This document shows positions 39,635 to 49,634 of a DNA stretch of 64,000 nucleotides, in pieces. Under the pieces are notes generated by a model. That model did no database searches. It had not been told where the DNA came from and worked only from the letters and a program-made list of their open reading frames with translations. This DNA comes from an uncultured delta proteobacterium. Lineage in GTDB: Bacteria > Myxococcota > Myxococcia > Myxococcales > Anaeromyxobacteraceae. How positions within the stretch are numbered: the stretch's first letter is position 1; each line of letters begins with the position of its first letter. The stretch is from NCBI GenBank assembly GCA_963766715.1, contig CAVYBH010000017.1, positions 133,396 to 197,395 on the forward strand. The letters are read 5' to 3'. The translations under genes and the position numbers were made by a program.

Positions 39635-40024
39635 ATGAACTTCCCCGAGGATCTCCAGTACACGCGCGACCACGAGTGGGCCCGCGTCCAGGGCAACCGC
39701 GTCACGGTGGGCATCACCGACTTCGCGCAGGACCAGCTCGGCGACGTCGTGTACGTCGAGTTCCCCGACGTCGGCGACGTCATCAAGAAGGGAGAGGCCT
39801 TCGGCGTGGTCGAGTCGACCAAGGCCGTCTCCGATCTCTTCTCCCCGGTCTCCGGCAAGGTGGTCGAGGTCAACAGCCCGCTCGGCGACGCCCCGGAGAC
39901 GGTGAACGAGGACCCCTACGAGGAGGGGTGGATGATCGTGGTCGAGATCTCCGACCCCAAGGAACTCGCCGAGCTCATGGACGCGCCCACCTACCGGAAG
40001 TTCGTCGAGGAAGAGCAGGAGTAG
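39635..40024 (+). CDS. gcvH: Glycine cleavage H protein
   Basis: HEW, GITDFAQDQLGD, VESTKAVSD. Confidence 0.96.
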   Translation: MNFPEDLQYTRDHEWARVQGNRVTVGITDFAQDQLGDVVYVEFPDVGDVIKKGEAFGVVESTKAVSDLFSPVSGKVVEVNSPLGDAPETVNEDPYEEGWMIVVEISDPKELAELMDAPTYRKFVEEEQE

Positions 40025-40027
40025 ACC

Positions 40028-41365
40028 TTGCGCTACCACCCCCACACCCCCGGGGACGTCCGGCAGATGCTGGACGTCTGCGGGGTGAAGTCCGTCGGCG
40101 ACCTGTTCCGCTCCATCCCGGAGAAGCTCCGGCTGGGTCGCCTCCTCGACGTGCCGGCCGCCACCGACGAGGTCTCGCTGCTCGCCGAGTTCCAGGCCCT
40201 GGCCGCCCGGAACCGGACCGAGCACCCGCCCTTCGTCGGCGCGGGCGCCTACGCCCACCACGTGCCTCCTGCCGTGGACCAGCTGCTCCTGCGCGGCGAG
40301 TTCTTCACGGCCTACACGCCCTACCAGCCGGAGATCGCCCAGGGGACCCTCCAGGCGCTGTTCGAGTGGCAGACCTTCGTGACGCTCCTCACCGGCCTGG
40401 AGATCGCCAACGCCTCCATGTACGACGGGGCCACGGCCACGGCGGAGGCGGTCCTGCTCGCCACCCGCGCCACGTCGCGCGACAAGGTCGTGGTCAGCGC
40501 CGCGCTCCACCCCGAGTACAGGAAGGTCCTGGCGACCTACCTGGCCTCCACGGGCGACGAGATTGTCACCATCCCCTACGGACCCGACGGCCGGACCGAC
40601 CTGGCGGCCCTCGAGGCGGCGGTCGACGATCGGACCGCGGCGGTGGTGGTGGGCTACCCCAACTTCTTCGGCGTGGTCGACTCTCTCCCCGAGGCGGCCG
40701 CCATCGCCCGCCGCGGCGGGGCACTCGCCATCTCCTCCACCGCCGAGGCGGTGGCCCTGGGACTCCTCCAGGCGCCGGGCGCGCTCGGCGCCGACGTCGC
40801 GGTCGGCACGATGCAGAGCTTCGGCAACGGCGTGAGCTTCGGCGGCCCGGCCCCCGGGTTCCTGGCCATCCGCGAGGGCCTGCTGCGCCAGATGCCCGGG
40901 CGCGTGGCCGGCGCCACCGTCGACCGCGAAGGGCGGCGAGGCTTCGTCCTCACCCTCTCCACCCGCGAGCAGCACATCCGGCGCGACAAGGCCACGTCGA
41001 ACATCTGCACCAACGCCGGCCTGGCCGCGCTCGCCGCCACCATCCACCTCTCCCTGCTCGGCAAGAACGGCCTCGCCCACCTGGCGCGGCTCAACTTCGC
41101 GCGCGGCAAGCAGCTTCGCGACGCCATGAAGCGGGCCGGCTTCGGGCTCCGCTTCACCGGCCCGACCTTCAACGAGGCAGCCTTCGAGGTGGGCGACGCG
41201 GAGGCGGTCGTGGAGCGGCTGGCTTCCCGCGGCATCGCCGCCGGCGTTCCGCTCTCCCGCTGGTACCCCGACGACCCGAGAATGAAGGGCGCGCTGCTCA
41301 GCGTGGCCACCGAGGTCCACACCCCCGAGCTCATCGAGCTCTTCGCCCAGACGGTGAGGGGATAG
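40028..41365 (+). CDS. gcvPA: Glycine dehydrogenase subunit 1
   Basis: [37 protein letters not shown]. Confidence 0.96.
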
Positions 41366-41367
41366 CC

Positions 41368-42935
41368 ATGGCCAATCCGACCGGCTGGAAGCCGAGCATG
41401 GAGAAGGGCGCCGAGGGCGCCGCGGCCCAGGAGCAGGGCGCCATGGGCGCCACCCGCGGGCTGCAGATGGAGGAGGCGCTGGTCTTCGAGCAGGGCTCGC
41501 CCGGGCGCATCGGCGTCTCCTTGCCCGCCGTGCCGGCCGGGACCGACCCTGCCGCCGAGATCCCGGCGGCGCTGCTTCGCCCGGAGATCCCCGGCATGCC
41601 GGAGATGGCCGAGCTCGAGGTGGTCCGCCACTTCACCCGGCTCTCCCAGTGGAACTGGGGGATCGACACCGGGTTCTATCCCCTCGGCTCCTGCACGATG
41701 AAGTACAACCCGAAGTCGAGCGAGGCGCTGGCGCGCCTGCCCGGCTTCGCCGGCGCCCACCCGCTCCTTCCGTCGTCCATGAGCCAGGGAGCGCTCGAGC
41801 TGATCTTCAAGCTCGAACGCGCCCTCTCCGAGATTGCCGGCTTCCCCTCCACCGTCATGTCGCCCGCCGCCGGCGCCCAGGGCGAGCTGGCCGGGCTCAT
41901 GATGATCCGGGCCTACCACGTCGCGCGCGGCAACCCGCGCCGCAAGGTCCTCATCCCCGACACGGCCCACGGCACCAACCCCGCCTCGGCTGCCCTGAAC
42001 GGCTACTCGACGGTCCAGCTGGAGAGCGGTCCCGACGGCCGGCTGCACCCGGAGACCGTGGCGAAGGCCATGGACGACGACGTCGCCGCCATCATGATCA
42101 CGAACCCCAACACGCTGGGGATCTTCGAGAGCCACATCGCGGAGATCGCGGCCATCGTCCACGCCCGCGGCGGGCTGGTCTACGGGGACGGCGCGAACTT
42201 CAACGCCGTGCTGGGCGTGGCCCGCCCCGGCGACATGGGCTTCGACGTCATGCAGTACAACCTGCACAAGACCTTCGCCACGCCCGCACGGCGGCGGCGG
42301 CCCCGGTTCCGGGCCGGTCGGCGTCGGCGAGGCGCTCGTGCCCTTCATGCCCCTTCCCGTGGTCGTGAAGGAAGGCTCCGTCTACCGCCTGGTCACCGAC
42401 CCGGCCGAGCGGCCGAGCACCATCGGCAAGCTCCGCGAGTTCTGGGGCAACATGGGCATGTTCGTCCGCGCCTGGGCGCTCATCCGCGAGCTCGGGCCGG
42501 AGGGGCTGCGCCGCGTCGCCGAGCTGGCGGTGCTGAACGCCAACTACGTCCGCGCCGAGCTCTCCAGGGACTTCAACCTGCCCTACGAGACCGAGACCCT
42601 CCACGAGGTGGTCTTCGACGACAAGCTCCAGAAGGACTCGGGCGTCTCCACCATGGACGTGGCCAAGCGGCTCATCGACCACGGGTCCCACCCTCCCACC
42701 GTGTACTTCCCGCTGGTGGTGCACGGGGCGCTCATGATCGAGCCGACCGAGACCGAGTCGAAGGAGACGCTCGACCAGTTCATCGCCGCGATGCGCTCCA
42801 TCGCCGCAGAGGCGAAGGCGCGACCCCGAGGCCCTGAAGAGCGCGCCCACGAAGCCCATCCGCGCGCGGCTCGACGAGACCCGGGCCGCACGGAAGCCCG
42901 TCCTCCGCTGGACGCCCGGGATGAAGGTCGAATAG
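41368..42935 (+). CDS. gcvPB: Glycine dehydrogenase subunit 2 (frameshifts ~42285, ~42825)
   Basis: LGSCTMKYNP, AHGTNPASA, NLHKTF, IEPTETE. Confidence 0.94.
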
Positions 42936-43077
42936 CTCGCACTTCGGGGCGGCCGGGTTGGAACTGCAACCCCCCGGATCGCAAGTGGATTGTCGCGCCC
43001 GATCCCGGCGAAAGTCGTGGACGGCTCGCTTTCCCTTGTGGCAGGCTGTGCCGGAACTCACCTCAGGGAGACTCCGG

Positions 43078-43725
43078 ATGAACAGGCTTCTCGGCGCCCT
43101 CGCTGTCCTCGCCGCTCTCGCGGCCGCACCCGCCGCCCAGGCCCAGATCGCCCTCGATTTGAAGGTCGGCTACGCGCTGCCCACCGGCAACGTCGCCTCG
43201 GCGACCACGGTGACGAGCGACCCCTCCGGCAAGCTGTCGAACTGGGTGTCCAGCGCCGTGCCGATTGAGATCGCGGGGCGCTACCGGTTCACGCCGAAGT
43301 TCTCCGCCGGCATCTACTTCCAGTACGACCCCGCGTTCGTCTCCGCCTTCTCCTGCCTGGAGAGCTTCTCCTGCTCGGCGTCCAACGTCCGGGTCGGCGC
43401 CGAGGCGGTCTACGCGTTCCTTCCCGACTCGACCTTCAATCCCTGGGTGAGCGTCGGCACCGGATGGGAATGGCTCAACCGCAAGGTCACCACGCCGACG
43501 ACCAGCGCCAAGGACGGCCTGAGCGGCTGGGAGTGGTTCAACGTCCAGGCCGGCGCCGACTGGAACGTGACGAAGACGTTCGCCTTCGGCCCGTGGCTCG
43601 GATTCTTCGGCGGCCAGTACTCCACCGCCACCACGACCGACGGGCGGACCCTCACCATCGCCTCGTCCAACCGCCAGTTCCACGGATGGTGGCAGTTCGG
43701 CCTGAAGGGCACCGTCAACCTGTAG
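43078..43725 (+). CDS. Small outer-membrane beta-barrel protein
   Basis: Signal peptide, alternating aromatic strands, end WWQFGLKGTVNL. Confidence 0.75.
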   Translation: MNRLLGALAVLAALAAAPAAQAQIALDLKVGYALPTGNVASATTVTSDPSGKLSNWVSSAVPIEIAGRYRFTPKFSAGIYFQYDPAFVSAFSCLESFSCSASNVRVGAEAVYAFLPDSTFNPWVSVGTGWEWLNRKVTTPTTSAKDGLSGWEWFNVQAGADWNVTKTFAFGPWLGFFGGQYSTATTTDGRTLTIASSNRQFHGWWQFGLKGTVNL

Positions 43726-47621: not shown

Positions 47622-47666
47622 CTAGCCGCGGCGGACGTTGGCCGCCTGGAGCCCCTTCGGGCCCTG
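47622..47666 (-). pseudogene. Cold-shock protein (CspA family) C-terminal remnant
   Basis: Translates QGPKGLQAANVRRG*; RNP1/RNP2 region absent. Confidence 0.6.
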
Positions 47667-47687
47667 CTGCCCGGATCTCGGGCGCGA

Positions 47688-47716
47688 AATATCCACAAAC
47701 CCCGGCGGGCCGTCAA
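47688..47716 (-). promoter_or_regulatory. Sigma70 promoter upstream of csp remnant/infA
   Basis: TTGACG-N17-GATATT with TGn extension. Confidence 0.55.
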
Positions 47717-48186: not shown

Positions 48187-48634
48187 TCAACCACCGGTGG
48201 CACGGAGCAGCGCGCCGGCACGCCGAGCCACCGCGTCGTTTCCCTCGCCCAGCTCCCGCAGGTCGGCCTGGGCGACCTCCACCCGCGGTCCCCTGCCGGT
48301 CGCCGGCATCGGGGGGAACGGCCAGGAGCGCCTCCGCCCGCGCCAGGCGGACCTGCCGATCGTCGGGAGCGAGGCGCACGGCGGCCTCCGCGCAGAGCAG
48401 CGCCGTCCAGGGCTCGCCGCGCCGCCGCTCGACCTGGGACAGGAGCGCCCAGGCAAGCGCGTCCCGCGGGTTCGTCACCACGAGTCCTTCCAGCATCCCC
48501 CTCGCCGCGTCGAGGTCTCCGTCGGCGGCTTCCTGCGCCGCGAACGACGCCACCGCGGCGCCCAGCTCCTCGGTGAACCCCTGCACCTGCGCGAGCGTCA
48601 CGCCTGCCATCAGCTCCTCGGTCGTCGGGATCAT
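48187..48634 (-). CDS. TPR protein resembling SycD/LcrH class II T3SS chaperones (frameshift ~48312)
   Basis: LMAGVTLAQVQGFTEE...GDLDAARGMLEGLVVTNPRDALAWALL pattern. Confidence 0.65.
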
Positions 48635-48644
48635 GGTCTCTCGC

Positions 48645-49579
48645 TCACCGGAGGTTCTGGACGGCCACCATGCTGGTGTCGTGCATGCTCTTCATGACGT
48701 TGGAAACTAGCGTGAACATTTGATTCTGCTTATCGACCAGGCGCTGGATCTCGAGCATCTGGAGCCGCTCGTCCGGTGAGCCGGCCTCGCCGGTCCCGGT
48801 CTTTGGATCGGGCTTGGGCTTGGTCTTGGTATCGGTCTTGGTGTCCGTCTTCGTGTCGGTCTTCTTGGCCGGGGCCTTCTTGGCCGTGGACGACTCGCCC
48901 GCCACCATCGCGCCGAGTCCCTGGCCGAGGGCGAGCGCAGCGGGTGCGAGCATGGGCAGCCCCACGGCCGTGGCCAGCGCGGCGAGAACCGGCCCACCCA
49001 GGGCCTGGAGGGCGTCCTTCAGGAACTCGTCGACGCCGCCGAAGATCGAATCGGCGATGGCGAGCGGCGGGACGAGCACCTTGAGGATGGTCCCGAAGAT
49101 GCCGCCACCGTCGTCCTGCTTCTTCGCCTCGGTCCCGCCCTCCCCGTACTTGGCCTTGTAGTCCTCCATCTTCTGCGTGAGCTCGCCGTCGAGCTTCTTC
49201 TGGACCGCCGCCATGAACCGGGCGAGCTTCTCCTCCACGCTGAGGGAGGCATCGGTGAGGAACGACCACTCTCCCGTGATCTTCGGGCCGGTGGACGCCT
49301 TCGGCTTCGACGCGGTGGCGGCGGCTGGACGCCGCGGTGGCGTAGCCGGCCCCGGAGCCGGGGCGCGACCGCCGAGGGCGACACCAGCCACGACGCCGAG
49401 GAGCCGGACCCGGCGCCCAGGATCCACGGGAGCTGGATCGCGCCCGCGCCGTCCTCCGGGAGGCCGGGCGCCTCCACGGCTTTCGGACCCCGGGCGGAGC
49501 TGCTCCGATCCTGCCCGGCGACCTCGTCGGTGGGGACGGAGAGGCGTGGGGAAGAGGGGATGGCCTGCGCGATGGACAT
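48645..49579 (-). CDS. Putative type III-secreted filament/translocator-like protein (frameshift ~49350)
   Basis: AAGGAGG SD; Ser/Pro-rich N-terminus; hydrophobic core; end LEIQRLVDKQNQMFTLVSNVMKSMHDTSMVAVQNLR. Confidence 0.6.
48800..48866 (-). repeat. 12-bp coding repeat (KTDT)x3 followed by KP tract
   Basis: KKTDTKTDTKTDTKTKPKPDPKT. Confidence 0.8.
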
Positions 49580-49618
49580 GGACGACCTCCTTGCGGTGAG
49601 AGGAACGGAGGGACGCCT

Positions 49619-49634
49619 AGCGCGTCGCGTGCCA
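49619..49634 (-). promoter_or_regulatory. Sigma54-type promoter
   Basis: TGGCACGCGACGCGCT (GG-N10-GC), 39 nt before the ATG at 49579. Confidence 0.6.

Follow-up and report, generated by a model that had tools for sequence, protein, structure and literature searches.

A two-gene module beside ruvX in Myxococcia resembles a type III secretion substrate with its chaperone

A two-gene operon beside ruvX

We analyzed a two-gene module within a 64,000-nucleotide stretch of DNA (hereafter the window) from an uncultured delta proteobacterium of the family Anaeromyxobacteraceae (GCA_963766715.1, contig CAVYBH010000017.1), and propose that it encodes a substrate linked to a secretion system of type III (T3SS) together with its chaperone. 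The host genome measures 4.2 Mb at 72% GC and is 84.6% complete. Both genes lie on the minus strand in one operon flanked by ruvX and crcB. Gene 1, the predicted T3SS substrate (48645..49579, with its ATG at 49579), has 310 codons and ends in ...SNVMKSMHDTSMVAVQNLR before a stop codon that finishes at 48645; gene 2 (48187..48634, 148 codons), which follows after 10 nt, encodes a tetratricopeptide repeat (TPR) protein resembling SycD and PcrH. A TPR gene at this distance had been noted in an earlier reading of the sequence alone (the original prediction), as had the sigma54-type -24/-12 motif (TGGCAC..GC, GG-N10-GC; 49620..49634) and the Shine-Dalgarno sequence AAGGAGG (49586..49592) ahead of gene 1 on the same strand, and all three were confirmed. 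The pattern GGCAY-N7-GC occurred upstream in 24 out of 24 related loci including the ruvX side (shuffled sequences: mean 2.1, maximum 7) and on the opposite strand in 1 of the 24, with a stricter promoter pattern present in 19. The host genome encodes rpoN, and we regard the motif as a putative sigma54-type promoter.

Five features could be delimited within gene 1, all on the minus strand. A G-Y-A motif (49339..49347) in the disordered N-terminal region is a candidate chaperone anchor, based on its conservation and a predicted interface. It is followed by a conserved helix that we call block A (49146..49274; AlphaFold2 helix 30-60, pLDDT 84-92), the predicted partner of the C-terminal helix. 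A first, weakly hydrophobic segment (49035..49106), with a weak SctE-like match, lies after a KK..GG.FG junction, and a second segment (48897..49001) with the conserved columns GGP.LAA.ATA.G.P.LAP forms an uncharged hydrophobic helical hairpin. The C-terminal helix (48648..48773) is of the needle type and resembles SctF, the needle subunit.

The window copy is interrupted. Gene 1, at 935 nt, exceeds a whole number of codons by two bases, and gene 2, at 448 nt, by one. A substrate of the predicted length of about 310 residues is thus obtained only with two changes of frame, and the full TPR protein with one. Uninterrupted homologues are common (e.g. P0004, 317 aa and 94% identical), and contigs of a close relative (run X1) each lack one base at 49367, 49326, and 48302; this comparison has one contig per site, the remaining three runs do not span these sites, and the contigs differ from the window at 26 and 32 positions over 592 and 650 bases. 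Because close relatives lack the three surplus bases, these are probably assembly errors, and the cell itself probably has an undamaged module. Of 152 orthologous genes tested, 31 showed a frame switch in this assembly, and some of the switches may belong to the query genome. Three breaks per 1.4 kb exceed this background, and decay of the module in this strain therefore stays in play as an unlikely explanation. Elsewhere in the window, glycine-cleavage-like genes (39676-43081; named by reading) also appear to be split across frames, which fits an error-prone assembly.

The order of the two genes is conserved. Among 30 related loci, which where titled belong to Anaeromyxobacteraceae, Myxococcales, or delta proteobacteria, the TPR gene stands directly downstream of the substrate in 29 (the one miss is a contig end) and ruvX upstream in 25 (five contigs are too short), with crcB downstream in merely 16. 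The Myxococcaceae genome G024 carries the same pair, divergent from ruvX. In a class-wide sample of 20 genomes, picked to span genera from 99 that match the Myxococcaceae TPR protein, all 20 have next to the TPR gene a substrate that carries block A, the C-terminal helix, or both, and ruvX and/or mltG is adjacent in 19. No third gene was found in the operon across the 30 related loci and the 20 class-wide regions. In the class-wide forms, block A adjoins the C-terminal helix, a hydrophobic segment lies at the N-terminal side, and many of these proteins bear repeats that match NolX and HrpK1 under the cut-off. The module is a fixed-position locus across the class Myxococcia beside ruvX/mltG, and sequence comparison indicates that the helical hairpin and the GYA motif are its constant core, with a cargo that varies between families.

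Relatives of the two proteins and their predicted complex

In agreement with the claim that the substrate lacks a Sec signal, a set of 121 diverse homologues showed no signal-peptide-like hydrophobic peak within the 35 N-terminal residues. A G[YW]A motif occurs in 100 of these 121 (4 in shuffles) and is also present in Myxococcaceae orthologues, whereas the P/VxLxxP anchor is found in 11 (8.9 in shuffles); the window copy has one such anchor, which is not conserved. Two hydrophobic stretches had been predicted, of which the second is clear and the first is weak: a 19-residue Kyte-Doolittle peak of at least 1.6 is reached by the second in 74% and by the first in 18% of 238 homologues. Columns of the second stretch are 84-99% conserved, and the hydrophobic core lacks a charged residue in 84% of the 238.

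Hairpin matches cover both block A and the C-terminal helix, which enclose an insert of about 120 residues. The C-terminal helix matches Pfam T3SS_needle_F (PF09392) at E 0.016 and 15.8 bits, compared to a cut-off of 29.4. This is the commonest Pfam match in the family (38 out of 144 members, best E 8.5e-4, none above the cut-off). The top match of the helix in the Protein Data Bank (PDB) is 7y6c_F (E 0.055), a fragment of the EsaG needle (PMC9426511; this and the other PMC-numbered sources are cited from part of their text). A profile of the paralogues located in T3SS loci matches 7y6c_F at E 9.4e-5, with the next match at 0.73, and aligns with the substrate helix at 99% probability. With 310 codons and a large insert, the substrate itself falls outside SctF as delimited by the PF09392 or TIGR02105 cut-off and a hairpin of 70-90 aa.

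The core points weakly to translocators. Of 39 proteins used as references, the two from SctE take the top two places (P 2.4e-5 and 4.6e-3), and the alignment falls at the junction between coiled coil and hydrophobic segment. Pfam SseC matches 7 out of 144 family members (best E 3.1e-4) below the membership cut-off; the one match that was located (16.5 bits vs 30.2) lies at the same junction. The Myxococcaceae orthologue matches two translocator families under their cut-offs, NolX at E 3e-5 and HrpK1 at E 1e-4, through repeats that are absent in the Anaeromyxobacteraceae form of the window. As a lead only, a NolX-labelled Myxococcota cluster in the ESM Atlas resembles the window family at 0.79. 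EspA was not matched in Pfam or PDB searches of the family. These weak but consistent similarities suggest that the C-terminal helix is SctF-like, as originally predicted, and that the core weakly resembles SctE translocators.

Gene 2 encodes a small stand-alone TPR protein of 148 aa with an N-terminal arm, as in SycD-like chaperones. Its TIGR02552 (SycD) score is 31.3 bits for the window piece and 27.3 for an intact relative, under the cut-off of 104.8, and 51.3 for the Myxococcaceae orthologue, where SycD is the top family. PcrH (E 0.0098) and SycD (E 0.075) are its full-length PDB matches and the only ones across profile positions 11-139 and 13-137. The TPR protein thus appears to resemble SycD/PcrH at a level below the family cut-off.

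We modelled the substrate-TPR complex with the intact proteins of a relative (L004). The pair scored 0.81 and the best of three controls 0.00; the mark for a pass is reached by 116 out of 157 solved and 2 out of 215 mismatched pairs, counts that are approximate for the alignments used. Runs share at least 73% of contacts, and partner pLDDT is at least 61. On the substrate side, four regions are in contact (the GYA motif, block A, the hydrophobic hairpin, and the C-terminal helix), and on the TPR side the N-terminal arm and a conserved LEGL..TNP stretch. According to PMC10116596, AcrH holds AopB via a short anchor together with the convex face and the N-terminal arm of the chaperone, a pattern that the modelled interface would parallel. 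The pass may stem from likeness to this solved complex, and the model therefore supports, rather than shows, binding of the TPR protein to the adjacent hydrophobic substrate. Together, the SycD/PcrH similarity and the model are in keeping with the chaperone assignment of the original prediction.

The short type III secretion system

Short and long 'Myxo' non-flagellar T3SS (NF-T3SS) loci are defined in PMC3459982, which, in the part of its text available, describes a secretin, SctF, tip, and translocon as lacking, with the caveat that homologues of the latter two may have been overlooked. The same lack is stated for the long T3SS* in the accessible parts of PMC10433427, PMC10849154, PMC12075869, and PMC12428579, the first of which places LcrH homologues within the long cluster. 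A literature search that covered few subscription journals and no supplements returned nothing on this locus or on SctF-like myxobacterial genes.

Our genome search for an export apparatus found T3SS genes on C7 and C12. The only FHIPEP gene ends a cluster on C7 that contains sctJ, sctQ, fliO, sctR, sctS, sctT, sctU, and then sctV, and C12 encodes sctN with sctL- and sctO-like neighbors; the labels sctL and sctO, like the name sctI given to the second C7 cluster gene, were assigned by reading of the sequence. The C12 genes (C12:708307-711589, L050) directly follow rpoB, rpoC, and a small sigma factor gene. No flagellin was found in this genome. Neither T3SS cluster contains a secretin; the secretin matches of the genome are spread over three sites, of which one is a type II secretion system (T2SS) locus and another is Tad-like. 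The Tad-like locus (C5:5906-12793) carries prepilin-peptidase-like, CpaE-like, and TadB-like genes and a frameshift-split secretin (all by reading). The long locus was not found in this 84.6% complete genome, whose one FHIPEP gene belongs to the short locus.

A profile of the substrate's C-terminal helix matched one other open reading frame (ORF) in the 4.2-Mb genome (E 2e-9; next E 1.5). This is the first gene of the C7 T3SS cluster, the match is again C-terminal, and the gene is preceded by the same promoter motif here and in 20 out of 28 relatives. Among 151 genomes, counted with kin as separate and thus non-independent rows (G081 as one row, never the sole basis of a claim), the C-terminal helix is present in 130 and an FHIPEP gene in 137. 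The helix is missing from all 14 genomes that have no FHIPEP gene (13 of them identified by name and the last by tally), and of the seven with FHIPEP and no helix, the four tested carry the flagellar FlhA. We also examined ten genomes for loss, four of which were uninformative. The ruvX site lacks the module in G014, which has no FHIPEP gene, and in G011 and G020, which have the long system only; in G148, likewise with the long system only, the TPR gene stands alone at ruvX. An eroded TPR remnant (L201:1938-2396) lies between ruvX and crcB in G055, which has FlhA only and no longer the substrate gene. The module is present beside ruvX in a divergent form in G113 (L200:2-1381 and 1930-2931), where a Gly/Ala-rich unannotated ORF occupies the opposite flank of ruvX in place of mltG. 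All five cases of loss or reduction are in genomes without the short system, which suggests that the module tracks the short T3SS.

These results change two parts of the original prediction. An accessory cassette had been proposed, and the class-wide presence, fixed position, and linkage to the short T3SS argue against a sporadic element. A tie to contact killing is unsupported, since the system credited with killing is the long one and our search of this genome did not find it; the short system, T3SS(2), is reported as not involved in prey killing in the available text of PMC10196010, citing Thiery 2022. None of the three outcomes that would have refuted the prediction was seen: the proteins show weak T3SS similarity, the genome has an apparatus, and the two genes co-occur in 29 out of 30 loci.

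Related genes occur inside the T3SS loci themselves. In both short and long loci, the first gene, ahead of sctI and sctJ, encodes a protein of 110-190 aa that ends in an SctF-type helix (C7:24082-24514, equal to L002:14083-14515; L103:15709-16275; L089). This head gene, which has a TPR gene after it in the long locus, encodes a product that matches TIGR02105 SctF at E 0.02. By sequence, the head gene is a candidate for the major filament subunit. Just before sctV, the long 'needleless' locus contains needle-sized ORFs with the same C-terminal helix, such as one of 74 aa in G024 (L104:13254-13475; second copy at G024:C1:2857669-2857770), three in tandem in G036 (L091/L093/L096), and five in G058 (L086-L098). 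They have no direct Pfam match, and T3SS_needle_F is found in 13-32% of the members of their ESM Atlas neighbors at 0.90-0.92. The long locus L104:10930-16614 also holds several TPR genes, one of them above the SycD cut-off (118 bits), each adjoining unannotated genes of 120-390 aa, one with DUF1521; these unannotated genes are candidate substrates of the predatory system. Outside the Myxococcota, a Rhizobium gallicum plasmid (L174:11998-14892) carries a T3SS that includes sycD, sctE, and genes for proteins of 262 and 179 aa; the C-terminus of the 179-aa protein matches the C-helix family, and its 18 homologues are unnamed or hypothetical. Near the module, a coding tail without an evident start (window 47624-47690), presumably from a cold-shock-protein-like gene, lies between IF-1 and crcB.

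Interpretation and comparison with known systems

We consider it very probable that the pair is a T3SS-linked substrate with its chaperone. The more specific proposal, that the short T3SS exports it late and with the aid of a chaperone as a hybrid of translocator and tip, is evenly poised. The weak SctE and SctF similarities partly support the originally proposed hybrid of a membrane-inserting region and a needle-type helix as a likeness, not as family membership, and the module likely works like a blend of the SctF, SctE, and SycD kinds. Several results weigh on the other side: no T3SS family (SctF, SctE, or SycD) was reached at its curated cut-off, the TPR protein ranks sixth for the SycD family within its own genome, alignments of the family to single SctE sequences with hhalign were not significant, and the hairpin profile from Myxococcaceae matched generic coiled coils only.

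In the mechanism that we propose, sigma54 likely transcribes the operon together with the structural operon of the short T3SS, with which it shares its promoter motif. The TPR protein is predicted to grip the substrate at the GYA motif, at the hydrophobic hairpin, and along the coiled coil; export would proceed through SctRSTUV and the SctN ATPase encoded on C7 and C12. Block A and the C-terminal helix are predicted to form a needle/tip-type hairpin, which may then cap a filament of the SctF-like product of the T3SS head gene, and the hydrophobic hairpin would enter some membrane as a translocon-like part.

The strongest alternative, which we regard as somewhat unlikely, is that gene 1 encodes a subunit of a filament or tip filament like EspA or Bsp22, in which the paired helices polymerise and the insert serves as a display or packing domain rather than as a membrane anchor. 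The pairing of N- and C-terminal helices around an insert is the layout described for Bsp22/EspA in the available text of PMC12607632, and the cargo differs widely between families. Moreover, the best match of the C-terminal helix among the 39 references is the R. gallicum gene that comes after sctE and the 262-aa gene (P 8e-7), but this gene has no named homologue and its tip role is deduced from gene order. Also against this alternative, no part of the family is more conserved than the insert, which is uncharged and hydrophobic, and the chaperone looks like class II.

It is distinctly unlikely that the pair acts as a secretion switch or sensor, in which the substrate is exported or docked at the gate by its C-terminal helix (SctX/SctY-like, or as a secreted anti-activator), has no structural part to play outside the cell, and thereby frees the TPR protein to regulate. 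The substrate and TPR protein do occur alone, with no partner translocator, and the TPR gene is retained after loss of the substrate in G148. SctY matches the TPR protein weakly (13.5 bits, E 0.078) but scores below SycD in both orthologues tested, and a switch would leave the hydrophobic hairpin and the NolX/HrpK1-like repeats unexplained. Less probable still is an insertion of the substrate into the outer membrane of the producer itself, where it would replace the missing secretin as the exit for filament or cargo. This fits the lack of a secretin in both T3SS clusters, the strict linkage to the short system, and the reported lack of a role of that system in prey killing (PMC10196010, in part); against it, the secretins of the T2SS, Tad-like, or third locus could be shared. 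The least probable reading of all, that the pair is a generic coiled coil plus TPR protein unrelated to type III secretion with compositional matches, draws on the sub-cut-off scores of every family, the similar scores of generic coiled coils in the hairpin searches, and the non-independence of kin genomes, and is countered by the one specific paralogue at the head of a T3SS operon, the promoter motif common to both operons, the joint loss with the short system, and the appearance of four separate T3SS families as best matches.

It is possible, though doubtful, that the short system builds a filament from its SctF-like head gene, capped by a single fused tip-translocator that would dock by its needle-type hairpin and open a membrane with its hydrophobic hairpin, without a dedicated secretin, and that the myxobacterial T3SS is neither needleless nor translocon-less. 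In that case, needle, class II chaperone, and one-protein translocon would predate secretin capture in the earliest-branching non-flagellar T3SS. The long predatory system likewise has needle-sized genes, and the C-helix profile, which points to SctF-like genes within both loci, bears on the 'needleless' model and on the proposed basal loss of SctF. The secreted cargo of myxobacterial T3SSs and its route are described as open in the accessible parts of PMC3459982, PMC10433427, PMC10849154, PMC12075869, and PMC12428579. The module provides a named candidate substrate and chaperone for the short system, and it is present in genetically tractable Myxococcaceae.

Compared to known systems, the module appears to be a new variant of the translocator-chaperone pair, tied to a secretion system without known function. 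It is most readily set beside SctE translocators with class II chaperones (AopB-AcrH, PopB-PcrH, YopB-SycD), with which it shares the adjoining TPR gene, a disordered N-terminus without a signal peptide, a coiled-coil helix followed by a hydrophobic hairpin, a weak sequence match at the junction of the two, and a predicted three-part chaperone interface (PMC10116596, in part). Unlike these, it has a GYA motif in place of PxLxxP, one clear hydrophobic segment, and an SctF-type C-terminal helix, lacks an adjacent SctB partner or tip gene, and lies far from the apparatus genes. SctF needles (EsaG, MxiH, PrgI) differ in measuring 70-90 rather than 310 aa, without the roughly 120 residues inserted between the helices; the substrate stays under the Pfam cut-off and has a single TPR partner, with no SctE-type co-chaperone gene seen. 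Class III needle chaperones (PscG/YscG/EsaH) pair with a PscE/YscE partner and hold the needle C-terminal helix only; in the present pair, this helix is one of four predicted contact regions, and no third gene was found in the operon. Bsp22 (with Btc22) and EspA, going by their descriptions, are alike in the terminal helices around an insert (PMC12607632, in part) and the adjacent chaperone gene (PMC7498569, in part), and unlike in that the substrate has a hydrophobic insert and a long disordered N-terminus. The plant-associated translocators HrpF/NopX (NolX) and HrpK1 resemble the Myxococcaceae orthologue but not the repeat-free form of the window. Finally, the short Myxo NF-T3SS (T3SS(2), MXAN_5643-5654 type) has its locus in this genome and its promoter motif in common with the module, and, unlike in the description given in the available text of PMC3459982, SctF-like and translocator-like candidates for it were found here.
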